From: a virus
Direction: 5' to 3' (one strand)
Virus record (IMG/VR): IMGVR_UViG_3300043788_000101
Location: 1 to 64,000 of that record
Length of the DNA: 64,000 bases
Shown: one piece after another, positions 2,485 through 63,383 of the stretch
Numbering within the stretch: the first letter of the stretch is position 1
Layout of the letters: each line of letters starts with the position of its first letter
Notes under the pieces: model-generated
The model's database searches: none
What the model was told of the DNA's origin: nothing
Seen by the model: the letters and a program-made list of their open reading frames with translations, nothing else
Translations under genes and position numbers: made by a program

Positions 2485-3566
2485 GCGACACCGAGCAAAC
2501 GCTCAAGCTTCTCATCGACCTTCTCCGCGCCAAGGTCGTCGACTTCAATTCGGAGCCGCCGCTCGAGTGGGACGCGGATGGCCACGAGGTCACGTGGAAG
2601 ACGCACGAGGGCGTGGCGTGGCATCAGACGCTGACGCTCACGCCGTACGATGCGGACGCGCGTCGTCAGTGCAAGGTCATGGCGCTCACGGGCTGGATCC
2701 GCGAGATGGGGACGCACGTGCGGCTTGGGCGAATTACGGGCGTCGAAGTCTTGCTCGACAAGAGCATGGACGCGGCAGAGCGATTGATGCGCGACGGCGT
2801 CATCACGGGCGAGGCGAGACTCAGCATCGGTGAGCTGTTCGCGGGCGCGGACGTCGACGCCAACGCCGAAGTAACCGAGCGACACGCCATCCGTGCCAAG
2901 GCCCAGGCGGAGCACGTCAAGGCAAGTAGCGAAGCGCTGACCGAGGCGCTCGCTCCGGTGGCCGCCGAGTTCGCGGCCAAGCACGGACTAGAAGCGCCGT
3001 CGCTGAGCTTCGAGCAGAGGCCATGCCCACCGGGCAGCTACGCGGGCTCGTTCGACTATTCGAACATCCCGAGAGGCGAAGCGCTGCCGCGAGAGAACTT
3101 CGAGCGAGCGGTGCGAGAGATGCGTGAGCAGGCGGACGGCTTGCCGCTCTTCGGTCCGCCCGTTCATGTCGATCCCGCGGCCATACGCGCCCGAGCCAAC
3201 GCCGCGCGTCCAGCGCCGTGGATCCACGAGTACTTCCACGGCACCGTCATGCTGCCGGGCGCGATCGGCGAGCCGTTCGGTTGCGAGTCGACGCGCGACG
3301 ACATGGTCTTCATCGGCTACGCCCGCGAGGATGTGCCGCAGCTACTCGACGTCATCGACGTGCTCGCGCGGCTGCTGCTCAACCCGGGACACGAGATCGA
3401 ATACGAGGGCGAGCGCGTCTTCACGTACCGACCGGGCGAGGTCATCGAGGCGCTCGCGGCGCTCGGGCTCGACACGGTCGAGAAGCGGGACGCAGCGCGG
3501 AGCAAGCTGTCGTGGTCGGGGGGCGGGAGTCTTGGGACAACGGACACGAAACCTGTAGGAGGATAG
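2481..3566 (+). CDS. Hypothetical protein with Ead/Ea22-like segment
   Basis: AIRARANAARPAPW...FIGYAREDVPQLLDVI resembles Ead/Ea22-type proteins; GTGA overlap. Confidence 0.55.
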   Translation: MSDTEQTLKLLIDLLRAKVVDFNSEPPLEWDADGHEVTWKTHEGVAWHQTLTLTPYDADARRQCKVMALTGWIREMGTHVRLGRITGVEVLLDKSMDAAERLMRDGVITGEARLSIGELFAGADVDANAEVTERHAIRAKAQAEHVKASSEALTEALAPVAAEFAAKHGLEAPSLSFEQRPCPPGSYAGSFDYSNIPRGEALPRENFERAVREMREQADGLPLFGPPVHVDPAAIRARANAARPAPWIHEYFHGTVMLPGAIGEPFGCESTRDDMVFIGYAREDVPQLLDVIDVLARLLLNPGHEIEYEGERVFTYRPGEVIEALAALGLDTVEKRDAARSKLSWSGGGSLGTTDTKPVGG

Positions 3567-3570
3567 ACGA

Positions 3571-3858
3571 ATGGCAACGAAAGCAATCGAACTCGGCGAC
3601 ACGGCGAAGGACACAATCTCGGGCTTCACCGGAGTCGTCACGGCAGATCTCGTGTACCTCAACGGCTGCCATCGGGTCGCGCTCTCGCCACCGATCGCGA
3701 AAGACGGAACGTTCAAGCAGACGGAGTACTTCGACGTCGAGCAATGCGCGGTCGTCAAGAAGGGCACGCACAAGCGGCTAGACCCGGGCGGCGGACCGAT
3801 GGAGAAACCGAACCGGCTTCCGAATCCGATGCCGCGACCTGGGCCTGTACCGCGGTGA
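3571..3858 (+). CDS. Hypothetical phage protein
   Basis: AGGAGG RBS; LGDTAKDTISGFTGVV...LNGC small beta-rich domain. Confidence 0.75.
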   Translation: MATKAIELGDTAKDTISGFTGVVTADLVYLNGCHRVALSPPIAKDGTFKQTEYFDVEQCAVVKKGTHKRLDPGGGPMEKPNRLPNPMPRPGPVPR

Positions 3859-50362: not shown

Positions 50363-51018
50363 CCGATTACGCCGTAGCACCCGCACGGGTCGGCCTCTGG
50401 CTCGACTGCGACACGATCGGCACGCTGACGCCGTCTAGGATCGCGGCTGCCATGGCGCATGTGCACCCGACCTACGGCAAGGTCCAAGGAATCGAAGGCT
50501 ACAGCGAGCTTCCGAACGAACGCGTCGACGGGACCATCTGGACGGCCGACTCGCTCGCGATGGTCGTCGCTGCTGGGGCGCAAGCGCTCTGGATACAGCA
50601 CCCACTCGCGCCGGGTTGGATACCGTCCGAGAACCTCGGGGCTATTCACGAGGAGCACGCGAGCGCCTACGCGGCCTCCTGCGGATTCCCGATGCCGATC
50701 CACGGCGGCGTCGACATCGAGGGCACCGCGGGGCCTTCGTACGGCTACGGGCTCACGTGGGCCACGAATCGAGTGCAGCGCGGCGGCAAGTGTATGGGCT
50801 ACTACGGCTACCAGCTCGGGATGAGCCTCGCTGACTTCGCTGCGATGGCGAACGTCACGGCGTATTGGGAAGCCTTCAATCAGCCGCGCATCGGTGGGCG
50901 CGGGCCGTGCCTTGTCCAGGGTCCTACGCTCACGATCCCAGGCTTCGGCGCGGTCGACACCGACCTGATGGCGGCCGACCTGAAGGGTGAGCTTCCCATG
51001 GTCTGCCAAGCCGCCTAG
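50359..51018 (+). CDS. Glycoside hydrolase-like (DUF1906/GH25-type) candidate endolysin
   Basis: VDIEG, GYYG, YW, VQ, VDTD pattern of GH25-like barrels. Confidence 0.6.
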   Translation: MTDYAVAPARVGLWLDCDTIGTLTPSRIAAAMAHVHPTYGKVQGIEGYSELPNERVDGTIWTADSLAMVVAAGAQALWIQHPLAPGWIPSENLGAIHEEHASAYAASCGFPMPIHGGVDIEGTAGPSYGYGLTWATNRVQRGGKCMGYYGYQLGMSLADFAAMANVTAYWEAFNQPRIGGRGPCLVQGPTLTIPGFGAVDTDLMAADLKGELPMVCQAA

Positions 51019-51047
51019 CAATCGCGACCTGCACAGCAGCGTCAAGC

Positions 51048-51088
51048 GCCCCCACCTGGCTTCGGCTGGGTGGGGGCTTTCTGCTTTT
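51048..51088 (+). terminator. Rho-independent terminator at convergence of the two arms
   Basis: GCCCCCACCTGGC-TTCG-GCTGGGTGGGGGC then TTTCTGCTTTT. Confidence 0.9.
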
Positions 51089-51117
51089 GTGCGCCCTCTC
51101 GCCCGAAGTCGCCTAGG

Positions 51118-51315
51118 CTAGCACGTTGGGCAGGGGCGGCGATGCTCGTCGCAGTAGTCGCAGTTGCCTAAATGCTGGCCGCAATCCGGGCACTTGACCT
51201 CGGCGGACAACGTCTCCGCCCACGTGCGCCAGTGGACGGTGGACGGACACGGCGGGTCCGAATCGGGCCGGCCAGTGTAGGGCCGGTGGCACCAGGCGCA
51301 AGTCTCGTCGCTCAT
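51118..51315 (-). CDS. Small Cys-rich protein
   Basis: GGGAGAG RBS after TGCGCGC; four CxxC pairs. Confidence 0.65.
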   Translation of the reverse strand: MSDETCAWCHRPYTGRPDSDPPCPSTVHWRTWAETLSAEVKCPDCGQHLGNCDYCDEHRRPCPTC

Positions 51316-51352
51316 TCGCTCTCCCTTGCGCGCACTCCCGCGCCGTTCGTCC

Positions 51353-51559
51353 TTACTTTTCACCACGCGAAATCAAGATGACATCGGCGACGAGTAGCGG
51401 TCGCTGCCACTTTCCCTTTGAGGCGAGACCATTCTCGCGCGTGAATCGGTAGCTGCCACAATTCGAGCAGTCTTCGCGCGCCATACTGCCGAACCCGAAC
51501 GCGACCATTGGCTTCGGGTGACGGCATCGCGCGAGGCGCAGCACGGCGGTGTGAATCAT
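51353..51559 (-). CDS. Small Zn-ribbon protein
   Basis: ATGA overlap; CRH...CSNCG. Confidence 0.6.
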   Translation of the reverse strand: MIHTAVLRLARCRHPKPMVAFGFGSMAREDCSNCGSYRFTRENGLASKGKWQRPLLVADVILISRGEK

Positions 51560-51990
51560 CGGCGTCCCGTCACGTCGAGCGACGAAGCCTCATCGAAAAC
51601 GCCCGCAGAAGCGTTTGGCTCCGTCTTCGCTTCTGAAAGCCTACGCGCCTCATTCACAAGGCTGTAGGTCTTGTCGCACTCGGCACAATGCTCAACGCAC
51701 GACGCGCCGGGGCACGCGCACCCGAGCGCGTACTGGTCGAGGCGAGCAATTGTCCTCGCGAGCATCGTACGCAAGGCGTCGCCGTACTGTTTCTGCGCGT
51801 CGGCAATCACCGTCCAGCGGTTCCGAGCCTTCGTCATCTCTTCGAGATCGGCTTCCGCCATAGCGAGCCTTGCGCGACTCTCGATTAGCCGCGTCTCGGT
51901 GCCGGCTAGAAGCTCTGGGCAGAACGCCTGGTGTTCGACGCCGCGCGCTGTCTTACGCCCGCCGCACGCATCGCAAACGAGGTAGCTCAT
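51556..51990 (-). CDS. Cys-rich coiled-coil protein
   Basis: ATGA overlap at 51990. Confidence 0.65.
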   Translation of the reverse strand: MSYLVCDACGGRKTARGVEHQAFCPELLAGTETRLIESRARLAMAEADLEEMTKARNRWTVIADAQKQYGDALRTMLARTIARLDQYALGCACPGASCVEHCAECDKTYSLVNEARRLSEAKTEPNASAGVFDEASSLDVTGRR

Positions 51991-52238
51991 GGCAACGGCT
52001 CCCATCGTCCAGGCAGCCAGTGAAGCGCCTCTCCGATGCCCCAATTCTTCCAATGCTCATCGCACCTGAGCGAGCGAACTATCACGCGACCGCTTCGCGT
52101 TCGACGATGCCTCGTAGGCCTCTGAGGGCAACGTCCGTCGCCACTCTCATGCTGGCATCGGCGGTGCTCAGTTTCGGTATGCGGGGTATCGACGCCGCAC
52201 ACGGGGCATGAAAACGTACCTGTCGGAACTGCACTCAT
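51987..52238 (-). CDS. Small Cys/His-rich protein
   Basis: GGAGG RBS; CPVCGVDTPH. Confidence 0.6.
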   Translation of the reverse strand: MSAVPTGTFSCPVCGVDTPHTETEHRRCQHESGDGRCPQRPTRHRRTRSGRVIVRSLRCDEHWKNWGIGEALHWLPGRWEPLP

Positions 52239-52297
52239 GTCGCCTCCGTTTGCCATTGTCCTAAAGCCCCTCGCGCGTAAAACAACGCCCATATTCC

Positions 52298-53106
52298 CTA
52301 CAGCGGTAGCCGCTCAGCGAGCCCAAACCCCGCACTATTGCGGTGTCCGCCTCCGCCGTACTTCTTGGCAATCTCCGAGACGTCCACGCCTTCGGGACCG
52401 CGCGACCGAAGCGAGTAGGCATAGATGCCGTCCGCTCGCTGGAACCATCCAAGGGCGAACGGGGCCGACTCCGCGAGCTTGCCGACTAGCTCTGAGATGT
52501 TGATGTACGGCGCATTCACGATCGGGATGCGGTAACCCTCGAAGTCGACCGTCCGGGCTTGTTCGACCATCTCCGATACGTAGCGGTCGACGAACGCGAG
52601 CACCGCTTCCCCCTTGTCGATGACAGCGGCAAGCGATAGGTCATTCAGTGCGCTCCACTCCGAGAACGAATCGCGCTTGCAGGCCGAGATCCAAGCGTTC
52701 GCCTCCTTGCTCTTGTCGAATTTCCACCGCCACAAGTCGCGGTCCTCCACGAAATCGATGAGCCACGGTCGTGCAGTCCGGTGCAGCAAATCCCATGTGA
52801 GGCCGGCGCCACTTCGATCCATGTCGAACGTGGCGAAGTCGAGCCCTTCGAGCGCGCCTGCGCCGTCTTGTGGTGGTCGAACACGGATAGTCCGGAAGCC
52901 TTCGCCTTCATGTCCAGCATGACGTCGCGCGGGTAGCTGAAGTCGACGACGAGCACCGACCGTCCGGTCACGTCGGGCGGTGCGTCGCCGTAGCTGGCTG
53001 GTAGGTACTCGGCCTCATCGCCGTACTTGAGCCACGCCGCCCACGCAGCGGTGTACCCGTCGATACAGTTCCCATGGTAGATTACGAGTCGCTTCTTCTC
53101 AGCCAT
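52298..53106 (-). pseudogene. DHH/DHHA1 phosphoesterase split by a 1-nt frameshift
   Basis: YHGNCIDG, VDFSY, DHHKT in one frame; SGAGLTW, EDRDLW, SLRS, GGGGHRNSAG in another; switch near 52855. Confidence 0.85.
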
Positions 53107-53145
53107 GGCCTTTCCTTTCCTGCGTGATCCTACGGGTTGCGCGCA

Positions 53146-53421
53146 TCACTTCGGGCATCGTCCGTACATCAAACCGCACCCCTCACACTCCCAGTGCGCC
53201 ACGTAGGAAGGCGGCGGCGGTCCTCCGATTCGGTCTGAATGGCGGTAGCGCACTACACCGGAAACGCGTCCACCACATACGCGGCACGGCGCAGTCTCGG
53301 GAGCGTATTTACCGACCCTGCGTCTCTTATCCTCTTCGTCCGCACGCCGCTCTGCCATGTGCTTCGGTATCTCGCGAGCTATGCGCGCCACGTCCTCGGG
53401 AGTGAACTTGGGCAGCTTCAA
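53146..53421 (-). CDS. Zn-ribbon hypothetical protein
   Basis: GAGGAG RBS, TTG start; CRVC, CEGC. Confidence 0.7.
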   Translation of the reverse strand: MKLPKFTPEDVARIAREIPKHMAERRADEEDKRRRVGKYAPETAPCRVCGGRVSGVVRYRHSDRIGGPPPPSYVAHWECEGCGLMYGRCPK

Positions 53422-53507
53422 GGTGTCTCCTCTCTCAGTGCGCGCATCACTTCGCCGATGACACCGACAAGTCTTCGAGTGCGCACGTCAAACCGTGTAG
53501 CATGTCT

Positions 53508-53732
53508 TCACTCCAGAATTCTTGTCGTAGGCGTTCCACCCGTCGCACGGCATCCGTCCGCCGTGACAGTCTCTTCAGTCTGCCCATTGGCATGCAGTTC
53601 GTGAGTGTCTAACCATGGACGCAGGCCGTCATCCAAACCGCTCCACGTGAAAGACGATCCGCACGGGCAAACGTACGTGGACGTATCAAGATCAACTTGA
53701 AGCTTTAGCGGTCCGGTCTCTCCCGCTCTCAT
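53508..53732 (-). CDS. Hypothetical protein
   Basis: GGAG RBS; CPCG. Confidence 0.55.
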   Translation of the reverse strand: MRAGETGPLKLQVDLDTSTYVCPCGSSFTWSGLDDGLRPWLDTHELHANGQTEETVTADGCRATGGTPTTRILE

Positions 53733-53758
53733 GTTGCTCCGTTCCTTTCTTCCGTCTC

Positions 53759-53995
53759 CTAGTCGTCCGCGCGCATCACTTCGCCACATCCAGGCGCGCA
53801 AGGTTCGCCTGCTCCCGCGCCACACAAGACGCACGTCGGTTTGCACCGTCCGCCATGGCCAGCGGGCAGCCGGCAGTGCCGTACGTTGCGCTCGTAACAG
53901 GGAATGTCACTCACCATGCGCGGCTTACACCGCTCACATCGACAGATGCAGGCGCGCGTCTGGCAATGAATCCCGTTTAGACAGTGCCCCGTCAT
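53759..53995 (-). CDS. Cys-rich hypothetical protein
   Basis: GGGAG RBS; numerous Cys. Confidence 0.6.
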   Translation of the reverse strand: MTGHCLNGIHCQTRACICRCERCKPRMVSDIPCYERNVRHCRLPAGHGGRCKPTCVLCGAGAGEPCAPGCGEVMRADD

Positions 53996-54029
53996 CTTCG
54001 TCTCCCTAGCGCGCGCAGCGTCGGCGCGA

Positions 54030-54302
54030 TTAGCAGTAGCATTCCGGACATGCGTGATGGCCCGTGTTCGGGCAGCCGATCTCGTTCTCTTTCTCACACG
54101 GGACGGCCTTCATATCCTTGAAGCAGAGAACGCGAGCGCCAAGACACTTCTTGCAGGCGAGCCCGCGAGGTGGGCGCATGCGCTCGTTCATTCGAGCCAC
54201 GATTCGAGCGGCCAGCTCGGGCGTGTCGACCATGCCAACGCACACGTCGTCAAAGTAGAGCGTGCGTCCCAATTTTCGTCCCACTCGCCACCTGGGAATC
54301 AT
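54030..54302 (-). CDS. Hypothetical protein
   Basis: WRVGRKLGRTLY...VGMVDTPELA; Cys-rich tail. Confidence 0.75.
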   Translation of the reverse strand: MIPRWRVGRKLGRTLYFDDVCVGMVDTPELAARIVARMNERMRPPRGLACKKCLGARVLCFKDMKAVPCEKENEIGCPNTGHHACPECYC

Positions 54303-54322
54303 CTAGCTCTCCCTCGCGCGCA

Positions 54323-54511
54323 CTACTTCGGCCTTCGTGACGACGTGCGCTCACATGGCGGCCATGACGTCGTGGCGTCGATTGTGACGTGCACACCTTC
54401 GTGCCCGCGTTCCCGATGGCATCGCATCCGGTGGTTGTTCGGCGGCTCCGCGCGGTACGCCCACGACCGACACCGCGCAGCTTTCTTTGTTCGGATGACC
54501 ATCTGACTCAT
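54323..54511 (-). CDS. Small basic Cys/His protein
   Basis: GGGAGAG RBS. Confidence 0.6.
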   Translation of the reverse strand: MSQMVIRTKKAARCRSWAYRAEPPNNHRMRCHRERGHEGVHVTIDATTSWPPCERTSSRRPK

Positions 54512-54532
54512 CTATCTCTCCCTCGCGCGCAG

Positions 54533-54922
54533 TTAGACCGCCGATGCTCCAGACACTTGCGCACTGACACTCACCGGAGTGTAGGCGTCACACTTCCCGC
54601 ACCTGGCGCACTTGTAAGGCGCGTGGTCGTAGTGCCGGTGCGGGATTGGGTCGTCGCCCTGACACTCGCAACGGTCGGGGTGCTCGTAAAAGCCGCGACC
54701 GCACCAGCTTAGCGCGCCGCCCTCGTTGTTGATTCGGTCTAGCCGTGCGTGGTCGACGTCCTCGGCTCGAATCTTCCCGATGGCGTCGTAAGCCCGAAGG
54801 ACGACACGTACCCTTTCCCATTCCTCGTCTGATGGGCGCACCCCTGGTGTTTCCAATTCTTGGAGTCGCCCACACTCGTCGTTGAGAGCAGATAGGATGT
54901 CAGCGATGGCTTTCGACTTCAC
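54533..54922 (-). CDS. Hypothetical protein with Cys/His-rich tail
   Basis: GTG start; CARCGKC. Confidence 0.7.
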   Translation of the reverse strand: MKSKAIADILSALNDECGRLQELETPGVRPSDEEWERVRVVLRAYDAIGKIRAEDVDHARLDRINNEGGALSWCGRGFYEHPDRCECQGDDPIPHRHYDHAPYKCARCGKCDAYTPVSVSAQVSGASAV

Positions 54923-54961
54923 GTTGTCACCCTTCGTCCGTGTCCCGGTTCATCGCGCGCA

Positions 54962-55129
54962 TCACTTTTGGGATGCTTCCGGCTTCGGAATACCCATCCG
55001 CACTTTGCGCAGAATGACGCATCCAAGGCACTTGCATCCGCGTGCGATGTATTGGCCCGTCTTCTCGTTCCCCAGCGTCCGCCATGCCTCTGCGGCTAAG
55101 CGGTCTGGTAATTCGATCGTTACCTTCAC
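54962..55129 (-). CDS. Small hypothetical protein
   Basis: GAGGAG RBS, GTG start; KVTIELPD. Confidence 0.6.
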   Translation of the reverse strand: MKVTIELPDRLAAEAWRTLGNEKTGQYIARGCKCLGCVILRKVRMGIPKPEASQK

Positions 55130-55170
55130 GGCGTCTCCTCTCTCAGTGCGCAGCGTCGGCGCGATGTTCC

Positions 55171-55419
55171 TCACGTATGCCCACCGTCTAAAACCTCGGA
55201 GGCGACGATCAGCGCCGGATCGTTTGAACCCTTGTGCTGCACGCCACAAATTGTCGATCCTGGAACATGCTCCATCGCACACTCGATTGCGCGCATTGCA
55301 GTTGGAGCCACAACGGCCAGCATCCGATTTTCGGACCACCGACGTCCCGCTGCCTCATCTTTCGGCAACGTGACCGTCACATGCCACACGTGCTGCCCCT
55401 TGAATACTTGAATGGCCAT
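55171..55419 (-). CDS. Hypothetical protein
   Basis: GAGGAGG RBS. Confidence 0.7.
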   Translation of the reverse strand: MAIQVFKGQHVWHVTVTLPKDEAAGRRWSENRMLAVVAPTAMRAIECAMEHVPGSTICGVQHKGSNDPALIVASEVLDGGHT

Positions 55420-55448
55420 TTCGTGCCTCCTCTAGAAGTCCGCGCGCA

Positions 55449-55739
55449 TCACTTCGGGGATGCTGGCGACACGTGCCCACCATTTTCGATGATCCGAACC
55501 GCGTCCTCTAACGCATGACCAGCCATCCGTCGGTCGCCATTCTTATATCGCTCCCACGAGGCGAGCGCCTCTGCCTTGAGCCAAGCAACGATGAGAGCCC
55601 GCTCGCTCTTCACGCCCTCATCGTACCCCGCCGCACGCATGATGCTCGGGACGTCTATCGGCGGTTGCTGCCCGACGTCCACGTAGATGACGGCGTTTGG
55701 CGCCAGTGTGCCTCGTAGGTCTGTCGGTTCATTAGCCAT
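55449..55739 (-). CDS. Hypothetical protein
   Basis: AAGGAGG RBS; ERALIVAWL. Confidence 0.7.
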   Translation of the reverse strand: MANEPTDLRGTLAPNAVIYVDVGQQPPIDVPSIMRAAGYDEGVKSERALIVAWLKAEALASWERYKNGDRRMAGHALEDAVRIIENGGHVSPASPK

Positions 55740-55784
55740 CGTGCATCCTCCTTCGCCTCGCGCGCAGCATCGGCGCGATTGTCG

Positions 55785-55991
55785 TTACACTTCCTCACGG
55801 TTCGCGAACCCATCAGTGTTCGGGCAAGTCTGCGAGTTTGGCCTGATGTGATTGTCGAGGATGCCTACGTACTTGCATTGGGAGCACCGCTCCAGACGAG
55901 GCTTTTTCTTTGGCCACGACAGGCCAACGACGCCGAGCACGATGGCGACCACGAGCAGAAACGTGAGGTACTGAATCGAGAAGCCTTGCAT
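55785..55991 (-). CDS. Small membrane protein
   Basis: AGGAG RBS; TM helix then KKK and CSQC. Confidence 0.7.
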   Translation of the reverse strand: MQGFSIQYLTFLLVVAIVLGVVGLSWPKKKPRLERCSQCKYVGILDNHIRPNSQTCPNTDGFANREEV

Positions 55992-56090
55992 GGTCGCCGT
56001 CTCCTAGAAGTCCGCGCGCAGCCGCGCGGCAATTGTCACTACAGATTCTCACCGCCGTTGACCAGGATGATCCCCTTGGCTTCATAGGAC

Positions 56091-56270
56091 CTAGCGCGCC
56101 TCTCGCGTTCTCGCGTTCCTCACAAGCTGCTCCACGGCCCCGCTCCGCGTCTGACCGCGCTGGCTCGCGATGGCGTCGAGTCGGGCAAGCGCCTCGGGAC
56201 TCAGCGTCAGCGTCACCATGGGGCGCGTGCGCTTGGCGTTGGGGGTCGTGGGGGTGCCGGAGCGGGTCAC
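56091..56270 (-). CDS. Ribbon-helix-helix (CopG-like) DNA-binding protein, 59 aa, not in ORF track
   Basis: MVTLTLSPEALARLDAIASQRGQTRSGAVEQLV; GTGA overlap. Confidence 0.8.
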   Translation of the reverse strand: MTRSGTPTTPNAKRTRPMVTLTLSPEALARLDAIASQRGQTRSGAVEQLVRNARTREAR

Positions 56271-56479
56271 GACTTCGATCGTTCGATTTCGATGATGCGA
56301 GCTATCTCGTTCAAAGCATCCCGGCGTGACCCGCGAACGGACGCCATCAACGTTCGGGAAGCATGTTCCCAGCCGACCGTAAAGCCTCGCCCGTCACTGT
56401 CGCGGCGAACGCGAACGTAGGCGCACTTCCCGTTGACGACAAGCTTGCGCGCGTCCCAGCCTGTCCATGTTTCTGACAT
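56267..56479 (-). CDS. Small hypothetical protein, probably leaderless
   Basis: ATG 7 nt after the TACTAT box. Confidence 0.65.
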   Translation of the reverse strand: MSETWTGWDARKLVVNGKCAYVRVRRDSDGRGFTVGWEHASRTLMASVRGSRRDALNEIARIIEIERSKS

Positions 56480-56486
56480 GAGATAG

Positions 56487-56515
56487 ATAGTACATGCGCC
56501 GTACGTACAGCGCAA
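56487..56515 (-). promoter_or_regulatory. Sigma70-like promoter TTGCGC-N17-TACTAT with GTAC repeats
   Basis: 17-nt spacer, extended TG, GTACGTAC palindrome at 56501-56508. Confidence 0.7.
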
Positions 56516-56596
56516 GGGATAATCGTACGCGCTATGTCGATTTCTGCGGACGCGGCTAAGTGCGCGAAAAGGCTGGGCGCGCGCATGGCACTTACT

Positions 56597-56884
56597 CTAC
56601 CGAAGTGCGTTTCTGCACTCGTCCAATGTGCGCTGAACGAGATAGTTGAACTCGGTTGGTCCGTCGATCAGGCCCCGTGCCATCAACAGTGTGGCTGCCG
56701 CGCTGTTCAGTGCGTCTCGAAGACGTTGCGTCTCCGCATCCTTCGTCTGCTCGATAATGACCTTGCGGACACGGTCATACAGCGTCTCGAAACCGAAGAC
56801 GATCATTGTCCCGTCGCCACCATCGCTCTGCCGAGCTGGGTCGATGGTGCGTCTCACGAGTCGGTCAAGCTCTTCGTCCGTCAT
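56597..56884 (-). CDS. Hypothetical protein
   Basis: AGGAGG RBS. Confidence 0.7.
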   Translation of the reverse strand: MTDEELDRLVRRTIDPARQSDGGDGTMIVFGFETLYDRVRKVIIEQTKDAETQRLRDALNSAAATLLMARGLIDGPTEFNYLVQRTLDECRNALR

Positions 56885-56930
56885 CGGGTGATCCTCCTGG
56901 TGCGCGCGCATCTGAGTTAGCTCACCCTCC

Positions 56931-58574
56931 CTAGTTGCTCTGGATGGCGACGGCCATGTTGGTGAAGTTCGACGTGCTGCCCGAGTTGTTGCCGAAGCTC
57001 GGCGTCGCGCTCCCGGTGAACGTGCCGGTTTCGAGCGTGGCCGAGTCGCAGTCGCAGGATCCCTCTAGGCCGTCCCAGTTCCACGTGCTGCCGAGCGCCG
57101 TGTAACCGGCGCCGGCCGACGAGGGATTGAATCCGTACGTGACCGCCACGACCAGCGACGGTACGTCGAACGTGAGGGTAGGCAGCACGTCCGGCTGCGT
57201 CCCGTTGCCCCCGCAGCAGTCCTCGAAGACGACGTTGGCCGACGAGCCGACCACGGGTAGCGGGCCGGTGCCCGCGATCTCGAGCACCGCGATCGTCTGC
57301 CACTGGTTCACCCCGTCGAAGGTCGATGTCACCGTGAGCCCGCCGGGCGCCGCCGGGACGCCCGTGGCGGCGAAGCCGAGCATCGCGCCGAAGTCGGGCG
57401 CGTCGGTAACCGAGTCGAACTGCGCGTACGAGTTCCCCGCGCCGTCGGTAATCGTGATGGGCGGCGGGGTCATATCGCCGTTGTTGTCCTCGGCCGAGAA
57501 GACGACGATCGTGCTGCCGGCGAGCACCGGGCCGAGGGTCGCGTAGATCGCCTCGTTGTTGCTGTTGCCCTCCGGCGGGCAGTCCCCGTCGCACTGGAAG
57601 GCCGCCCACTGCCGGACGTACGCCGCGACGCCACCGGCATCGGGAGCGGCGTCTGGGGCAGCGTCCGCCGTGGCGTCGACACCGCTCTCGGTCTCGCCCG
57701 CTTCGTCGCTAGAGGCCTCCGCCTCTGCCAGAGCATCTAGCGTGCTGGAGTCGCTGGCGTCACTCGAAGGGGCCGCGTCATTGGCATCGCTGAGCGCTCC
57801 ATCGGTCGCGTCCGAGCCCGCCCCGGCGTCCGAGGCGTCCGATACGTTCGCGTCGGATGCGTCGGCAACGGCCGCGTCATTCGCGTCGCCGCTCCCGTCC
57901 GAGGCGTCGCTGCCCGCATCGTGCGCCGCATCGGTGCTGGCGTCGCTCGACGCGTCGGCCGCGCTGTCCGCCCCCGCGTCCGAGCTGCCGGCCGCCGCGT
58001 AGACACGCATCTGCCCGGTCGTCGTGTAGTAGTTCAAGCCGCCAGGCGCGCCGTACACGCGGATCGCAGTGCCCGTCACGGCCGGGAAGGTGAACGTGTA
58101 GGTCTCGAAGTTGACGCCGTTGTCGCCGCCGAACGCCGGGCTCGTCGTCACACCCGAGACGGTCGTCCACACCCCGCCCTGCTCGACCTGCACGGCAACG
58201 CTCGTGAACCATCCGCCGTTCCAGTACTGGATGCCCTGCTGGTAGACGACGCCGCCGAACGTCTGCGCGGTCGCGTAGGTGTAGCTGATCCAGTTCGCCG
58301 TCTCGGTCTTGCCGGTGTACGCGTTGAACTGCTGGGCGGAGTCGGTGGACCCCTGCGGCTCGAAGATGCCGTCGTAGATGACCGATAGCGGCCCGGCCGT
58401 CCCGAGCGCGGCGTGCGTCGGGGTATCGCCGAACGCGGCCGTCCCGCTTGCGGTGATGTCGGTGCCGAGCACCGCCTGGCTCTGGCTCTCGACGCGCTCT
58501 GGTGGGGCGGACGCACTGCAGCCGAGCAAAGCAGAAACGCAAACGGCGAGAACGCTCGTCTTATGGATCATCAT
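56931..58574 (-). CDS. Large lipoprotein: discoidin/CBM-like domain, DAG/DAS linker, beta-sandwich domain
   Basis: Lipobox LLGC, ESQSQAV; WISYTY...GGVVYQQG...GGWF...AIRVYG; acidic SDA repeats. Confidence 0.85.
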   Translation of the reverse strand: MMIHKTSVLAVCVSALLGCSASAPPERVESQSQAVLGTDITASGTAAFGDTPTHAALGTAGPLSVIYDGIFEPQGSTDSAQQFNAYTGKTETANWISYTYATAQTFGGVVYQQGIQYWNGGWFTSVAVQVEQGGVWTTVSGVTTSPAFGGDNGVNFETYTFTFPAVTGTAIRVYGAPGGLNYYTTTGQMRVYAAAGSSDAGADSAADASSDASTDAAHDAGSDASDGSGDANDAAVADASDANVSDASDAGAGSDATDGALSDANDAAPSSDASDSSTLDALAEAEASSDEAGETESGVDATADAAPDAAPDAGGVAAYVRQWAAFQCDGDCPPEGNSNNEAIYATLGPVLAGSTIVVFSAEDNNGDMTPPPITITDGAGNSYAQFDSVTDAPDFGAMLGFAATGVPAAPGGLTVTSTFDGVNQWQTIAVLEIAGTGPLPVVGSSANVVFEDCCGGNGTQPDVLPTLTFDVPSLVVAVTYGFNPSSAGAGYTALGSTWNWDGLEGSCDCDSATLETGTFTGSATPSFGNNSGSTSNFTNMAVAIQSN

Positions 58575-58598
58575 CAGAAACCTCCCTGCAAGGTGAAC

Positions 58599-59081
58599 TT
58601 AGAACGTCGGCACGTCTTCGTCAGCGTCACTGTACTCGCCGAAGCTCGGCGCCTCGAACGCAGGAGCCTCGAAGCTGGGAGCCTGCGGCGGCGGCCCGTC
58701 TGGCCACTCGGTCTCGCCAGCAAGCGCGCGCGCCTCTGGGGGCGGCGGCACGACGCCGGAGCGGATGCGGCGGGACCACCCCCTAGCTCTCGCAGCTGAG
58801 CGACGGTTGCCGGCGACATACTTGAGCTTGTCGGGCTTTGGGTTGTTAGCCGCGTAGGTCATGGCCTCAGCCAGGGCCTCTAGGAACTCGGGCGAGCACT
58901 GGCTCATTCGTTTGCCGGTGTAGTCGGGCCCACGGAAACTCTTCGGCGAAAAACGAATCTGCTCGTCACCGTACTGCGAGTCAAGATCACTGTCGCTAGC
59001 AAACAGTCCGCTCGCGGACTCAAGGTAGGCGACCCGATCTCGCAGGTCCTTGAAAGCCTTTCGCAGCGCGTCCTCGTTCAC
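58599..59081 (-). CDS. Hypothetical protein with acidic C-tail ending VPTF
   Basis: APSFE/APAFE repeats; DEDVPTF resembles SSB-type tails. Confidence 0.7.
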   Translation of the reverse strand: MNEDALRKAFKDLRDRVAYLESASGLFASDSDLDSQYGDEQIRFSPKSFRGPDYTGKRMSQCSPEFLEALAEAMTYAANNPKPDKLKYVAGNRRSAARARGWSRRIRSGVVPPPPEARALAGETEWPDGPPPQAPSFEAPAFEAPSFGEYSDADEDVPTF

Positions 59082-59584
59082 TCGGTCCTCTGCGCAAAAC
59101 GAGAGGGCGTGGTGAGAGCACGTTCAATAGACCATCCTACAGCTAGCCGTTCGCAGAGCGAGCACGGCTGGATGCCAATGCGTCGAGCCCAATCACTTAT
59201 AGTGAGACACTCTCCCCGGAATGAGATTCGACGATTGGTCGTACGATTGTTCGCCTGTTCTTTCTGCGTCGCCCATCGACAATTGCGCGACGTATAGTTG
59301 CCGTTAGTGTTGTTGCGCTCAAGCGTGTGTTTTGGAGATGGCTTGCGACCCATGTCGGTTAGGAAGTTCTGAAAGCCGGTCCGCCCAGACCATCGAGCGC
59401 AGACCTGGATGCCGCGAGCGCCGTATCGCTTGAAGCGCGATGAGCTTTCGATCTCGCAACGCGCGTGCATGTTTTGCCAAGCAGTGTACTCAGGCGTGGC
59501 CTTGCGACCAAGTGACTGACTAGGAGATTCGCCGTGCGTCGTAAGCGCGGCTCGTGCGGCTGCTATCTGATTCGGGTTGCCCAT
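59078..59584 (-). CDS. HNH endonuclease
   Basis: THG...TPEYTAWQNMHARC...YGARGIQVC...LERNNTNGNY...NCRWAT..EQANN. Confidence 0.9.
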   Translation of the reverse strand: MGNPNQIAAARAALTTHGESPSQSLGRKATPEYTAWQNMHARCEIESSSRFKRYGARGIQVCARWSGRTGFQNFLTDMGRKPSPKHTLERNNTNGNYTSRNCRWATQKEQANNRTTNRRISFRGECLTISDWARRIGIQPCSLCERLAVGWSIERALTTPSRFAQRTE

Positions 59585-60714
59585 CACGCGACCTCCTTCG
59601 GCTTGAGCGCCCGGGGCCGACGTGGAGCCTTCGCAGCCCCGATCGGCTTGGCCGCAATGATACGCGAGACCGGGGACTCCCGGTAGCATTCCGCGATCTC
59701 TTCCTCAGTGGCCCCGCGCTTGCGGGCGAGCGCGAGCAGAGACTCCGCGTGCAGTCGTTCGCTGGAACTGAGCGACTCGCGTAGCTCCCGCCCGTCCGGC
59801 AGCGGCAGACGCTCTTGACGGGCCCGCTCCTTGATGAGGTCGAGGACGCGTTCGAGAAGCGGCTTCATGCGGTCGTGGCCGAGCACCCAGGCCTCGCCGA
59901 GCTGCTCGGGCGTGGCGGTCGCCAGCGTACCATCGACGGCCACGAGGTCGGGCAGCATCGAGCGGACGAGGGCCTGTTTCGCCGGGCAAGCGCCCGACGT
60001 GAGGGCCGGGCAGTACCGGCACCATTCGCCCTCGTTGACGTCTGGCGTGCCTTTGGCCAGGTAGACGCGCTTTGCCTCCTTCGACGCCGCGAGCGCCGCC
60101 TCAAGCTCATCGAGGAAGCCGTCGAAGTCGAAAGCCGTGTGCACCGCCGAGTCGTTCCAGACCTTGCCGCTCGTCTTGACGCTCGAGATGCGAAACTCGA
60201 CCTCGGGCGCGTCGTGGGCCAAGTGCACCGCGCTCGCGAGCATGAGGCCCTGGCCGTTGTAGGCGGCGGGCTCGACGTCTAAGAATCCTGTCTTTATATC
60301 CGTAATCCTCGGCCTGCCGTCGACGTCGTTCCCGAGAATGTCGATGCTGCCAGGCACGTCCCACTCGCCGAGCGGGCCATCCTTCTCGTATTCGCGGCCG
60401 ATGTCGACCCCGATGAAGCGCGCGGTGCGCTCGCGCACGTTGACGATGTATGAAACTTCGCACGAGATGTCGCTGAGGTCGCCGCCGATCTTGTGCCAGT
60501 CGATCGCGGCGCATGTCTCGCGCGTGGCCGGATCCTTCACGGCTTCGAGTGCGCGTGCGACTGGCGTGCCGGTGAGCACAGCCTTGCCGTATCGGTGGAT
60601 GACGGTGCCGCGGACCGCGTGCGGGCTGTCGCTGTCGGCGTGGCTGAAGGCTAGCCAACTCGGGCACATGAGGGTGCGCGTCGTCGCGCTGGCGGAGCCG
60701 TTCGGGTATCTCAC
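59584..60714 (-). CDS. PD-(D/E)XK exonuclease, Cas4/DUF2800-like
   Basis: CP, RGTVIH, CEV, GSIDI, ITDIKTG, GEWCRYCPA...C. Confidence 0.85.
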   Translation of the reverse strand: MRYPNGSASATTRTLMCPSWLAFSHADSDSPHAVRGTVIHRYGKAVLTGTPVARALEAVKDPATRETCAAIDWHKIGGDLSDISCEVSYIVNVRERTARFIGVDIGREYEKDGPLGEWDVPGSIDILGNDVDGRPRITDIKTGFLDVEPAAYNGQGLMLASAVHLAHDAPEVEFRISSVKTSGKVWNDSAVHTAFDFDGFLDELEAALAASKEAKRVYLAKGTPDVNEGEWCRYCPALTSGACPAKQALVRSMLPDLVAVDGTLATATPEQLGEAWVLGHDRMKPLLERVLDLIKERARQERLPLPDGRELRESLSSSERLHAESLLALARKRGATEEEIAECYRESPVSRIIAAKPIGAAKAPRRPRALKPKEVA

Positions 60715-60902
60715 GGGCCCTCCTTCAAAGCGGTCGCAATCATATTGCAGATGTCGCGGTCGTGAATAGCAGGAAGCGCCTCGACGAGGAGGCGCTCTAG
60801 CACGATGCAGCGGAGCACGAGGCGCCGCGTGCGTGGGTCATCCGCGAACCCGTCGTCGACCATCGAGTCGTCTTCGAGCGGGGCGGAGATGACGGCGGTC
60901 AT
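60711..60902 (-). CDS. Hypothetical protein
   Basis: Coupled at both ends. Confidence 0.6.
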   Translation of the reverse strand: MTAVISAPLEDDSMVDDGFADDPRTRRLVLRCIVLERLLVEALPAIHDRDICNMIATALKEGP

Positions 60903-61330
60903 GACCAGCGCCCAAGTGGCTTATCAAGCGGTATGCCGCGTTTCAGTCGAGACCACACCGTACCCTTGTCGAGGCCAAAGCGATCTGCCCACGCTTGCAT
61001 ACAAAGAGTCTCGCCACGGAACGTAATCATGCGGTTGTTCCGACGATTTCGGTTCTGCTCTGACGACGTCGCCCAGCGCACGTTTCCCGGCTCGTAGTTC
61101 CCGTTTGGGTTTGGATGACGATCCAGAGAATGCCATGGGCTGGGTCGAGGGCCAACGGACGCGTAGAAAGCCTCGAATGAACCCATCCAGCTGGAGCAGA
61201 CACGAATCCCACGGCCACCATACAGATGCCAGTACTCGTGCGTAGAACGAGTACACCTGGCCTTCATACTATGCCAGGCCGAGTACTCGGGTGTCCCGTA
61301 CATGCCGTGAGTAGTCTGCGAGTGGGTCAT
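60899..61330 (-). CDS. HNH endonuclease, paralog of 59078
   Basis: THGM..TPEYSAWHSMKARC...YGGRGIRVC...SLDR...NGNYEPGNVRWAT. Confidence 0.92.
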   Translation of the reverse strand: MTHSQTTHGMYGTPEYSAWHSMKARCTRSTHEYWHLYGGRGIRVCSSWMGSFEAFYASVGPRPSPWHSLDRHPNPNGNYEPGNVRWATSSEQNRNRRNNRMITFRGETLCMQAWADRFGLDKGTVWSRLKRGIPLDKPLGRWS

Positions 61331-62295
61331 CGCGCAAGCGTCCCCTGCTGCGCGCCACCGAATGGGATCGGAGGTTCCTCAGGGCCGTCATACGAGTCAC
61401 CGCGCTGATTCGGCGGGAGGTACGGCTTCGTGTTCGCGGGCGGCGCCGTGGTCGAGGCGGACCCCTTCGGCTCGTCTTTCTTCTTCGCGCCGAGGGTCAG
61501 ATTGTAGAACGTCCGAAGCTCTGCCCCCATGGCCTCCGGCGCGTCCGCCGAGAACTTCCCGATGAGCGCGTGGACGGCCTTCTTGTCCTCGGTCTTGCCC
61601 GACGCCGCTGCGTCGGTGACGGCCTGCTTGAGCACGTCGGCCTCGGCCTGCCAGTCGCGCGCCGCGACCTGCGGAGGCGGAGCGCCTGCCGTGACGACTT
61701 CGCCCTGCATCTCGTCCTCAAGCTCGTCGATGGTAGGCAAACCCATGGTCGCGTCGGGAAACCAGATGTCGGCCGCTTCCGATCGGGCGCGAGCCTGCAT
61801 CATGCGCCGAGGGAACTTCTCATAGTTGGAGTCGGGCTTCACGACCCCCATACGCTTCGCGTCTTCGATCGTGAACTTGACGAGCTGTTCGGGCGAGCCC
61901 TTCCGTTTGACCTTCCACGTCGCGTGCGTCGTGTCGCTCGAGACGTGCTCGAAGATTTCGCACTGCGGGTGACGCAGGACGAGCGCCTGCTTGAGCGCCG
62001 CCGAGAGGCCGGTGCGCCCGTAGAGGTCGTAGACGTGCTGCATCGCGATGACGGCAGGAATGCCGAGGTTGCGCCCGGTCATGAGGCGCATGAGAGCCTG
62101 CTGCTCAGTGAGCTTCGCTGCGCCCTTCGGCGCCCACATGCCCGAGTCGGAGATGATCTTCGCGAGGCTCATCGCGTGCTGAAAGTCGTTCGGTTCGAGC
62201 GCGAGCGCGAACGAGTTGTCAGGCGTGGTCTTCGCGAGCGCGACGCTCGGACGGCTCGGGTCGTCGTGGCTGTTCGGCGGAGTCGTGGTCATCAT
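61327..62295 (-). CDS. RecT-like single-strand annealing protein
   Basis: GRNLGIP..AMQ, FTIEDAKRMG, NYEKFPRRMMQARA, FPDATMG; paired with exonuclease. Confidence 0.78.
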   Translation of the reverse strand: MMTTTPPNSHDDPSRPSVALAKTTPDNSFALALEPNDFQHAMSLAKIISDSGMWAPKGAAKLTEQQALMRLMTGRNLGIPAVIAMQHVYDLYGRTGLSAALKQALVLRHPQCEIFEHVSSDTTHATWKVKRKGSPEQLVKFTIEDAKRMGVVKPDSNYEKFPRRMMQARARSEAADIWFPDATMGLPTIDELEDEMQGEVVTAGAPPPQVAARDWQAEADVLKQAVTDAAASGKTEDKKAVHALIGKFSADAPEAMGAELRTFYNLTLGAKKKDEPKGSASTTAPPANTKPYLPPNQRGDSYDGPEEPPIPFGGAQQGTLAR

Positions 62296-62352: not shown

Positions 62353-62559
62353 TTATTGCGATGCGGTCGGGTCCGCGAGTCGACGCCGTTTGGCGTAGCG
62401 CTGGACCGCGGTGCGGGCGAGCGTCTTGAGCGGTTGTCCCATCCCCCATCGATAGATGCTGGACTGAGAAACGCCGAGCGCCTCGGCGAGCTTGCCGACG
62501 CCGCCGGCAGACTCTGCGAGCTGGAGCCACGCGCCCTCGAGCGACGTCTTGCGGCTCAT
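62353..62559 (-). CDS. Cro-like HTH regulator
   Basis: GGVGKLAEALGVSQSSIYRW. Confidence 0.88.
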   Translation of the reverse strand: MSRKTSLEGAWLQLAESAGGVGKLAEALGVSQSSIYRWGMGQPLKTLARTAVQRYAKRRRLADPTASQ

Positions 62560-63383
62560 GCGGACACCAACGCAAGGCGCGGTTTTGTATAGCGGTCGAG
62601 GTAAGCGCCGACGTCTGGGCGCCCTTGTCTCTCAAACAGACCCACGAGTCGATTACACGCGCTATGAACAAGCGCCCGCGGGACCCCAGTGGCGTGGTCA
62701 TGGTCGCGGTGCACGGAGTCACCGCGGTTTCCGTGCGGCCGCATGGGCTTGCCGCAGCAGGCGCAAAGCCCACACTGAGATTCCCACGCAGCCTCGAATG
62801 CCTCACGAGTCCAGCCGGTACGTTTCTCGATCTGGGCGTAACGGTATCCGTTCGCCTCGCGACGGGTCTTGTCGTGGCTTCGAAGATGAGTCTCGCATAG
62901 AAGTGGACTACCGAGCTTGCGATTCTGCAAAAACGCATTGCAAACCTTGCAATACGGTGGGCGCGGCCTTTTCGTGTATGGCCGCTTCGGCTTCCGCATC
63001 TTTGCCTTCGCCTCTTCGGAATGAGGACGACCAATCCACGGGTGGTGCTGCGAGCGATACTCAGCACGCGAGGCAAGAAAGAGATGGTCGATGCGAACGC
63101 ATGCCCTATTGCGGCAGCGCCATAGAAGGACGAGCCCGTGCGGAATTGGCCCAACAGATACGCGCCAAGCTACACGATGATTGTGTGTCTCGCGCTTTTC
63201 GCCAGGAATGCTAATCGAAATCGTGCCGTACCATTCCAGGCATTCCCCTACCGACACACAGTCGACCGAGAGGCGGTGCCGCGCGACAGCAATCCGTTCG
63301 TCTGGCGTCATCGCTTGCGGTGCGCGCCCAAGAAGGTGAGAGCAGTCGCCGGGACAAGTTTCGGGCACTTGCGCGTGTCGCAT
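62556..63383 (-). CDS. Fusion of degenerate HNH, NUMOD3 and Endonuclease VII domains
   Basis: CLEW...HRVAW...GPIP...CRNRACVRIDHL; GRPHSEEAKAKM; QCGLCACC...HRDHDHATG..RALVHSACN. Confidence 0.8.
   Translation of the reverse strand: MRHAQVPETCPGDCSHLLGRAPQAMTPDERIAVARHRLSVDCVSVGECLEWYGTISISIPGEKRETHNHRVAWRVSVGPIPHGLVLLWRCRNRACVRIDHLFLASRAEYRSQHHPWIGRPHSEEAKAKMRKPKRPYTKRPRPPYCKVCNAFLQNRKLGSPLLCETHLRSHDKTRREANGYRYAQIEKRTGWTREAFEAAWESQCGLCACCGKPMRPHGNRGDSVHRDHDHATGVPRALVHSACNRLVGLFERQGRPDVGAYLDRYTKPRLALVSA

Follow-up and report, generated by a model that had tools for sequence, protein, structure and literature searches.

Integron cassette arrays that lack an integrase (CALINs) have been reported in phages, and other short elements repeated between phage genes are known. 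For the promoter-early stem-loop (PeSL) cassettes of T4-type phages, gene shuffling by homologous recombination between the elements has been proposed (Arbiol et al. 2010, PMC2839356; Comeau et al. 2014, PMC4122927). The start-associated sequences (SAS/ESAS) of Cluster K mycobacteriophages are thought to function in expression (Pope et al. 2011, PMC3203893), and the stoperators of Cluster A mycobacteriophages are repressor-binding sites situated in short intergenic gaps (as cited in PMC3203893). Here we describe a junction element with the 7-nt core TGCGCGC that recurs between the genes of one array in IMGVR_UViG_3300043788_000101 (hereafter G000), a complete 90,916-bp phage genome from IMG/VR with a 118-bp terminal repeat and 63.6% GC; the window referred to throughout comprises bases 1-64000 of this genome.

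The accessory regions of phages form the chief reservoir of unknown genes, among them genes for host take-over and anti-defence, and the rapidity of their turnover is understood only in part. From a comparison of the junctions in G000 with those of related arrays, we propose that the junction family bounds single-gene cassettes at the accessory ('hyperplastic') end of an early operon, and that recombination between the elements would shuffle whole genes. We place the probability of this reading at about 0.68.

Results

Structure and conservation of the junction element

Fifteen junctions occur on the minus strand of G000, from 56910 down to 51328; the core is perfect in thirteen of them and altered at one position in the other two (TGCGCAC at 55146-55152 and TACGCGC at 52273-52279). 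A preliminary description had placed the elements in 53424-56040, where they are indeed found, although their actual extent is larger. The whole array (51118..56934, minus strand) consists of some 17 small, mostly Cys-rich ORFan genes and a DHH phosphoesterase cassette, with junction elements between the genes. The proteins encoded between junctions are 55-153 amino acids in length and frequently contain CxxC pairs; no paralogy was detected among the array proteins, and none matched a Pfam or PHROG family. Over 51.3-56.9 kb the minus strand contains 15 copies of TGCGCGC, compared with an expectation of 1.9 based on the remainder of the genome (Poisson P = 1.7e-9).

On the coding (minus) strand, a junction passes from the upstream gene and its stop codon through the left flank and TGCGCGC into a leader, which bears the ribosome-binding site and runs to the start of the following gene. 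The element spans approximately 50 nt, made up of a 22-nt left flank, the core and a leader of 10-35 nt, in which the Shine-Dalgarno sequence and the start codon of the following gene are located.

The same element was found in seven further arrays, namely those of the IMG/VR contigs G001, G003 and L277 and of the soil contigs L141, L143, L144 and L146. G001 (IMGVR_UViG_3300043777_000073, a 62-kb fragment) was reached through its portal protein (86% at the amino acid level) and bears nine junctions of like build on its minus strand. G003 and L277 were recovered by left-flank patterns, and the four soil contigs were recovered from soil metagenomes by a pattern combining the core and the right flank. 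Curation yielded 65 junctions from seven of the eight arrays, L277 being used for the cassette map only; the junction statistics below refer to this set. When a weight matrix was trained solely on the relatives, its nine best hits in G000 (90.9 kb, both strands) all fell within the array.

The core is invariant in 63 of the 65 curated junctions. Conservation also extends to G-22, T-21, A-16, A-13 and T-12 of the left flank and to a purine at +8. The upstream stop codon is located at -21..-19 in 27 junctions and at -3..-1 in 21, always in the same frame, and the bases that follow the conserved GT may form any of the three stop codons (TAG, TAA, TGA) or a sense codon (TCG, among others). Since the left-flank nucleotides are untranslated in some junctions and encode a C-terminal '..ASPK' in others, this conservation is one at the level of nucleic acid. 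Downstream, the distance from core to start is 13-39 nt, with a separate ribosome-binding site in between.

Independent assortment of the flanks

The observation with which the preliminary description began was that the left and right flanks of the core assort independently, and the motifs that it quoted are all present on the plus-strand coordinates given. AAGTGA stands against the core at 53139, 53440, 53769, 54955 and 55442, and AAGTAG at 54316; the left type ATCGCGCCGAYGC is found at 54011, 55146 (where the core is TGCGCAC) and 55760. The right types GGACTTCTAG (55442, 56014), ACTGAGAGAGGAGAC (53440, 55146) and GAGGGAGAGnTAGATG (54316, 54525) each occur with two left types. The four genes said to end in Lys-stop do so because the flank provides their final codons, AAG TGA in 55739->55449, 55129->54962 and 53421->53146, and AAG TAG in 54511->54323. 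At 53769 the AAGTGA is out of frame; a 78-amino-acid open reading frame (ORF) runs through the core there and stops at a TAG in the right flank.

Across the 65 junctions, similarity of the left (22-nt) flank is uncorrelated with that of the right (14-nt) flank (Mantel r = 0.034, permutation P = 0.18, 2080 pairs), and a single pair of junctions reaches 80% similarity or more for both flanks, where 2.2 such pairs would be expected. The right type GGACT is combined with left types A, B1, B2 and C, and GAGGG with A, B1, C and others, while five different left flanks (in G000, G001, G003 and twice in L277) precede the leader and opening codons of the 'MANGG..' gene, located at 52256 in the window. 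The adjoining coding sequence is similar in only 2 of 67 pairs with similar left flanks and in 4 of 68 pairs with similar right flanks, and thus the flank types are not a by-product of gene homology.

These data also bear on the idea that the junction is a small mobile repeat, resembling a repetitive extragenic palindromic (REP) sequence or a miniature inverted-repeat transposable element (MITE) and composed of GTAG plus a palindrome, which has inserted between existing genes. Many left flanks do open with GTAG, GTAA or GTGA followed by a GC-rich segment capable of pairing with the core, and REP elements sit after stop codons. Yet the lack of linkage between the left and right halves means that the element is not mobile as one piece, and it is GT rather than GTAG that is conserved. 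Furthermore, the copies all share one orientation and are confined to one array, the complete genome has no RAYT/Y1 transposase, and a weight-matrix rescan of all fetched loci revealed no array in any bacterial locus, including the 120 that matched the left-plus-core pattern, and no host or prophage copy. Insertion of a mobile repeat is accordingly a very improbable origin for these junctions.

Turnover of cassettes between arrays

Most cassettes are unique to one array, and the families that are shared switch neighbours and order. With a letter for each shared family and a point for each cassette unique to its array, the map reads ..A...........BC for G000,.B.D..EFC for G001,.AFHDB..... for L143, ..E.IH.JE...... 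for L146 and ...IJ for L277. The order B<D<F in G001 is thereby opposed to F<D<B in L143, and I and J, which are neighbours in L277, lie apart in L146. An RtcB-like ligase gene constitutes an array cassette with a standard left flank and core in G001 (L138, G001 58310-59520, minus strand); in G000 the RtcB-like gene is located outside the array, on the plus strand beyond the window (69640-70827), with 72% nucleotide identity to the G001 copy. Hence, among the relatives, gene content and gene order both differ and the two flanks are unlinked, an outcome in favour of the crossover reading of the preliminary description, which linked flanks and a fixed gene order would have contradicted.

Homology breakpoints at the core

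G000 and G001 are collinear as far as the end of the array, their alignable backbone being approximately 75% identical (65-87%; length-weighted by hand). The sole array block common to both is a three-gene segment of 961 bp on the minus strand (window 51317-52277, corresponding to G001 60539-61499), which is 95.8% identical and has unrelated surroundings. The homologous stretch opens inside the core of junction 14, at its second nucleotide boundary (2 nt in), and extends to 17 nt past the core of junction 15, where the two phages share a GAGGGAGA-type leader. Contigs of two soil runs match only 51326/51328-52277 (approximately 95-97%) and then diverge from the window. In other comparisons, blocks start at core position 0 (G001/L146) and at -1 (G000/L143), and end at +7 (G001/L146) and +6 (G001/L143) relative to the core. 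Altogether, five of 14 free block ends lie at -3..+9 of the core start in both partners, an interval representing about 3% of array positions (binomial P = 3.9e-5), and five of the six block ends located at junctions are within 2 nt of the edges of the 7-nt core, the sixth being at +17.

'Empty' junction pairs, in which two cores are 21-56 nt apart and enclose a left flank only, or a start codon plus a left flank, are present in the window at 53800/53775 (53769-53800), in L144 at 921/900 (900-927) and in L277 at 3577/3521 (3521-3583). They look like scars of cassette loss.

The ends of the soil contig L141 (1-1457) are identical over 123 nt, so that the contig reduces to a 1334-bp unit comprising two cassettes and as many junction elements. 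This unit could be a circle (similar to the mini-circles of PeSL systems, which form by exchange between neighbouring elements), a tandem repeat or an assembly cycle.

The breakpoints can be set against an account in which the element is purely an expression signal and has no role in recombination: illegitimate recombination anywhere would generate the cassette differences, and selection would retain those joints that fall at gene borders. The shortness of the exact homology is in its favour. This account sits poorly with block ends that cluster at the edges of the core (five of six) instead of spreading over the approximately 45-nt junction, with a 96% block bounded core to core inside a backbone of about 75% identity, and with the occurrence of 'empty' pairs. 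On these grounds we regard it as unlikely, and its expression side is taken up below.

Proposed mechanism and candidate machinery

The presence of the element at every boundary, and its sharing by a family of soil phages, imply a short portable homology. Tracts of exact identity across the core are no longer than 19 nt inside G000 and attain as much as 33 nt in comparisons between phages. We propose that recombination would take place between junction elements, either within one genome or between co-infecting relatives, and that whole genes would in this way be deleted, inserted, replaced or reordered, each gene keeping its stop and restart signals. The exchange would probably consist of homology-guided annealing by the phage's own RecT-like and PD-(D/E)XK module, or else of host recombination; the brevity of exact identity makes relaxed, annealing-type recombination more plausible than classical long-homology exchange. 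What keeps the element invariant may be an additional role in expression, in which it would link stop to restart, perhaps by way of a short hairpin or of a site for a protein.

The RecT-like annealer and the exonuclease encoded upstream in the same arm had been put forward as the machinery, on the argument that the window contains no integrase. That argument can be strengthened, as the absence of a tyrosine integrase (PF00589) extends to the entire 90.9-kb genome, in which serine recombinases (PF00239) and Y1/HUH enzymes of the RAYT transposase type (PF01797) were likewise not found. As for the two proteins, PHROG matches indicate a real annealer-exonuclease module, and synteny is suggestive of its involvement in exchange. 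The RecT-like single-strand annealing protein (61327..62295, minus strand) matches phrog_561 with an E-value of 7.6e-17 and Pfam RecT at 20.7 bits, which is below the cut-off; its candidate partner, the PD-(D/E)XK exonuclease (59584..60714, minus strand), matches PF12705 (E 1.5e-5) and phrog_69 (E 1.2e-15). In G003 an Erf-like annealer and a RecE-like exonuclease (L269:3358-4871) occupy the position of these two genes, the order being the Erf-like/RecE-like pair, the same repressor-like gene as in G000 and the array. The pair is not homologous to that of G000, so that one recombination module stands in for another, non-orthologous one before a junction array that is itself conserved.

Several considerations weigh against shuffling by recombination at the junctions. 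Exact identity across the core is short, with a median of 8 nt and a G000 maximum of 19 nt, and tracts of 19 nt or less do not exceed, and may fall short of, the lengths needed for efficient Red/RecET-type recombination. The breakpoint statistic derives from 14 ends of just seven inter-array blocks of at least 80 nt. The soil runs are represented by assembled contigs, from which rare variants are dropped, and their joints consequently reflect the junctions of relatives and not events within a population. The evidence for recombination is wholly comparative, no event having been directly seen. An annealer-exonuclease pair upstream is weak evidence, such modules being common in phage early regions. 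Finally, near-complete invariance of a 7-nt core (63/65) across backbones of 65-87% identity exceeds what a passive patch of homology would require, and suggests a direct added function; the core might bind a protein, such as the conserved ribbon-helix-helix protein described below.

For these reasons, the earlier proposal of repeated crossover at the core stands in part. Unlinked flanks, reordered cassettes and breakpoints in the core all speak for it, but independent assortment alone is not diagnostic. Moreover, because flank types are common to unrelated genes, exchange or selection must also act at the borders between flank and gene, and not solely at the core, and the direct function suggested by the invariant core lies outside what that proposal covers.

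Fold-back of the left flank onto the core

The 7-bp fold-back CCGCGCG-GCTG-CGCGCGG at 56012-56029, which had been noticed beforehand, is real. The more general suggestion that left flanks fold onto the core proved correct in that such pairing is commoner than chance, although it is not universal. In 34 of the 65 junctions the left flank and the core region can form an uninterrupted Watson-Crick stem of 5 bp or more, as against 7.8+-2.6 when only the left flank was dinucleotide-shuffled. Such stems form in all B2 flanks (CCGCGCG-GCTG-CGCGCGG), in all C flanks (GCGCG-GGAGTG-CGCGC) and in about half of the A (GCATC-N8-GATGC) and B1 flanks, with differing registers. No G-U bias that would assign the stem to the RNA strand was found, and the folding energy of the whole element was no better than that of dinucleotide shuffles (mean z +0.12). 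The fold-back may represent a hairpin of the RNA or of the DNA, or else a by-product.

A left arm that varies from cassette to cassette and folds onto an invariant 7-nt core calls to mind the attC sites of integrons. The junction could on this basis be a site of dedicated, site- or structure-specific cassette exchange, an attC analogue that operates free of an integrase, with strand exchange at the core, catalysed or triggered by an unrecognised phage enzyme such as one of the HNH or endonuclease VII-like nucleases of the arm. The core is indeed invariant and crossover points lie within it; as is the case for attC cassettes, the gene upstream of a junction carries the left flank along with it and the gene downstream carries the right; and different left types are each complementary to the core region, with stems of 5-7 bp in all B2 and C flanks and about half of those of types A and B1. 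Arm nucleases are available (an HNH plus Endonuclease_7 protein at 62556-63383 and two HNH paralogues), and L141 assembles as a 1334-bp two-cassette unit. Set against this, the complete genome is devoid of any tyrosine or serine recombinase or HUH enzyme, and the hairpins are very short, adopt several registers and are missing from about half of the junctions. Exchange confined to the core fails to explain flank types common to unrelated genes, G003 has the same core but different upstream genes, and the element measures 45-50 nt. attC sites, by comparison, are 57-141 nt long and have two paired boxes. Taken together, these features make a dedicated exchange system of this kind decidedly improbable.

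A hybrid of the two ideas, in which TGCGCGC and its fold-back arm would form a minimal attC-like site of an exchange system without integrase, where a phage nuclease or the ribbon-helix-helix protein recognises the core or the hairpin and starts the exchange and the annealer-exonuclease pair (RecT-like, or Erf-like in G003) completes it, is a speculation to which we attach rather little weight. If it is true, lytic soil phages would capture genes in integron-like fashion by an enzymatic route that is new.

Expression signals in and around the junctions

No sigma-70-like promoter was detected in 51000-57100 (shuffles gave 1.3), no intrinsic terminator was found at the junctions, and the junction element had no Rfam match. 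Since the Shine-Dalgarno sequence starts just 1-8 nt downstream of it, the core most probably forms part of a polycistronic mRNA and is not a promoter. An extracytoplasmic function (ECF)-type promoter, formed by a GGAAC-like box and the core, was considered and rejected, because a Shine-Dalgarno sequence 1-8 nt past the core leaves no space for a transcribed leader. Sigma-70 region 2 was not found in the complete G000 genome.

Under the expression-only account, the element would be a ribbon-helix-helix operator, a device for translational coupling or restart, or a hairpin for mRNA processing or stabilisation. The invariant core, left-flank positions conserved whether or not they are translated, the fixed orientation and the placement between stop codon and Shine-Dalgarno sequence would all be expected of such a signal. 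So, too, would the repressor-like gene conserved at the array heads of G000, L143 and G003 and the excess of left-flank/core stems of at least 5 bp (34/65 versus 7.8+-2.6). The lack of sigma-70-like promoters, terminators and an Rfam family, and a mean folding-energy z of +0.12, run counter to it. In addition, expression and recombination roles are compatible with one another, so that the expression account competes with recombination between the junctions solely in the form that denies the latter any role; it is that form which we judged unlikely.

Genomic setting of the array

On the plus strand G000 encodes its structural proteins (terminase, portal, protease and tape measure). The nearest cultured relative of its portal is that of Myxococcus phage Mx4 (36% at the amino acid level), and no DNA-level relative of G000 was found in the phage collection searched. 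The leftward arm occupies the minus strand from approximately 63.4 kb to 51.1 kb, with the junction array as its distal end. In order, the arm comprises genes for the HNH/Endonuclease_7 protein (62556-63383, minus strand; domain matches), a small regulator, the RecT-like annealer, an HNH endonuclease, the PD-(D/E)XK exonuclease, a second HNH paralogue and a 547-amino-acid F5/8-type-C protein, and then the array. The exonuclease gene is flanked on both sides by the paralogous HNH endonuclease genes (59078-59689 and 60899-61330, minus strand; phrog_3377, E ~1e-46). The arm ends opposite convergent plus-strand genes at a strong hairpin terminator (51048-51077), where a 13-bp GC-rich hairpin followed by a T run between the convergent arms is likely to act as a bidirectional terminator closing the array.

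Other searches for related loci returned little. IMG/VR protein scans with the 547-amino-acid protein, the exonuclease and the RecT-like protein yielded no relatives, and the arm proteins of G000 had no homologues in the sequenced parts of the relatives examined, so that co-occurrence of the array with a RecT-type module was compared by function, in G003. The DHH gene as query retrieved only non-syntenic phages without the motif, a metagenome-contig protein scan with the gene adjoining the array end gave no match, and scans with a 14-nt motif (IMG/VR) and a 19-nt motif (bacterial genomes) gave single hits only.

The junctions of G000

All of the following features are on the minus strand and are described in the direction of transcription. 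Junction 1 (56885..56934) has its core at 56904-56910, an atypical left flank and the leader GCACCAGGAGGATCACCCG, and precedes an ATG at 56884. The head element (56480..56609; core 56579-56585) continues for about 100 nt of non-coding sequence that is 93% conserved with L143 and terminates in TACTAT-N7-ATG (56479), possibly a leaderless start; an adjacent ribosome-binding site is absent. An inverted repeat in this element, TGCGCG-N13-CGCGCA, was considered as an operator and rejected, as it is not conserved in G003. At the array head lies the ribbon-helix-helix-like repressor gene (56091..56270; phrog_4738, E 9.6e-6), which is conserved in L143 (3220-3384; 94% at the amino acid level) and G003 (L269 5907-6071; 56%).

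Junction 3 (55992..56044; core 56014-56020) combines a B2 left flank (CCGCGCGGC), with the 7-bp fold-back onto the core, and the right flank GGACTTCTAG, before an ATG at 55991. Junction 4 (55740..55790; core 55760-55766) has a B1 left flank (TAA-CGACAATCGCGCCGATGC), the right flank GAGGCGAAGGAGG and an ATG at 55739, and junction 5 (55420..55472; core 55442-55448) has an A left flank (GCATCCCCGAAGTGA, in which the stop is TGA), again GGACTTCTAG on the right, and an ATG at 55419. The variant core TGCGCAC (55146-55152) belongs to junction 6 (55130..55176), whose left flank is of type B1, whose right flank is (AC)TGAGAGAGGAGAC and whose start is a GTG at 55129. A GTG (54922) is also used after junction 7 (54923..54985; core 54955-54961), where an A flank with an AAAGTGA stop is followed by a long leader.

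In junction 8 (54512..54555; core 54525-54531) the left flank GGTCTAAC contains a TAA stop, and the right flank GAGGGAGAGATAG leads to an ATG at 54511. Junction 9 (54303..54346; core 54316-54322) displays a variant of left type A with an AAGTAG stop, the right flank GAGGGAGAGCTAG and an ATG at 54302. Junction 10 (53996..54041; core 54011-54017) is of left type B1 (TAA-TCGCGCCGACGC) with GCTAGGGAGACGAAG on the right and an ATG at 53995. Junction 11 (53733..53800) is the 'empty' pair of the window, with a core at 53769-53775, a second core 25 nt upstream (53794-53800) and an ATG at 53732; here the left AAGTGA is out of frame and the right flank GGACGACTAG provides the stop of the upstream ORF. 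Junction 12 (53422..53470; core 53440-53446) joins left type A to the right flank ACTGAGAGAGGAGAC and is followed by a TTG at 53421.

Junction 13 (53107..53169; core 53139-53145), with an A flank (TGA stop) and a right flank beginning AACCCGTAGGA, precedes the DHH phosphoesterase cassette, the ATG of which is at 53106. This cassette (52283-53106) is split over two frames, such that residues 5-88 of the homologue in L006 correspond to 53094-52843 and residues 71-277 to 52894-52283; the split could be due to a frameshift, a sequencing error or a pseudogene. In the unrelated phages L006-L011 the DHH gene is a single ORF outside any junction array. Junction 14 (52257..52303), which marks the upstream end of the block shared with G001, has the core TACGCGC (52273-52279), the left flank G-TAG-GGAAT..., the right flank GAGGGGCTTTAGGACA and an ATG at 52256. 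The downstream end of that block is junction 15 (51316..51358; core 51328-51334), with a C left flank (TAA-GGACGAACGGCGCGGGAG), the right flank AAGGGAGAGCGA and an ATG at 51315.

Discussion

This locus offers an unusually clean case for the study of gene turnover in phages, combining a strictly conserved short junction, eight independent arrays, near-complete cassette turnover within a backbone of 65-87% identity, and breakpoints at a 7-nt core. The core, the two sets of flanks and the candidate annealer-exonuclease pair together represent a defined substrate for asking whether phage annealing proteins drive modular evolution. The junction could also act as a search handle for accessory-gene arrays in soil metagenomes.

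Comparison with known systems

Like an integron, the array is a one-orientation series of promoterless, mostly ORFan single-gene cassettes, with a conserved 7-nt core at the cassette borders and an arm that differs between cassettes and is able to pair with this core. It differs in that neither IntI nor any other integrase is encoded by the complete G000 genome, in the lack of R''/L''-L'/R' double boxes and of a GTTRRRY core, in having a single short stem (5-7 bp) that is not universal, and in a junction element shorter than any attC site. From REP/RAYT systems the element differs in that GTAG is not conserved here, PF01797 is absent and the left and right halves are unlinked. With stoperators the element shares the character of a short asymmetric site, repeated between genes and oriented with transcription, and a repressor-like gene is nearby; stoperators, in contrast, are distributed genome-wide, whereas the present element is limited to one 5.6-kb array.

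The SAS/ESAS sites are likewise short, conserved, asymmetric motifs in a single orientation, limited to non-structural genes and placed shortly before the starts of genes that belong to unrelated families, sometimes with an upstream inverted repeat. The SAS itself, however, is the 13-bp GGGATAGGAGCCC in the position of the ribosome-binding site, 3-7 bp from the start (PMC3203893), whereas the core described here has a different sequence, is linked to the stop of the preceding gene and precedes the start by 13-39 nt, with a separate ribosome-binding site downstream of it. Nor have SAS sites been reported as mosaic breakpoints.

Of the systems compared, PeSL cassettes come closest. PeSL elements differ from the junctions in having a strong sigma-70-like early promoter (-35, -10 and an AT-rich upstream region), not found here, and a stable stem-loop that serves as terminator or attenuator. 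Terminator-like sites were not found at the junctions and the folding energy of the whole element equals that of shuffles, although short left-flank/core stems of 5-7 bp occur in 34 of the 65 junctions (7.8 expected). Compared with the approximately 100 nt of a PeSL, the present element is about 50 nt in length, GC-rich and built on a strictly invariant 7-nt core, and it appears to lie inside a polycistronic transcript as opposed to starting a new one; its host genome is that of a high-GC soil phage of about 91 kb with a Mu/Mx4-like portal, and not of a T4-like myovirus. The two nevertheless have much in common. Each is a repeated intergenic element that begins at the stop codon of one gene and reaches the Shine-Dalgarno sequence and start of the next, each is clustered in a plastic region rich in ORFan genes, and in each case whole-gene insertions, deletions and replacements between related phages coincide with the elements. 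A circular by-product would be a further likeness if the L141 unit is a circle comparable to the mini-circles of PeSL systems. Judged by these shared features, the junction element is a putative high-GC counterpart of the gene-shuffling linkers of T4-type phages, one without promoter or terminator, and linker-mediated gene shuffling, known from AT-rich T4-type phages, would thus extend to unrelated high-GC soil phages.

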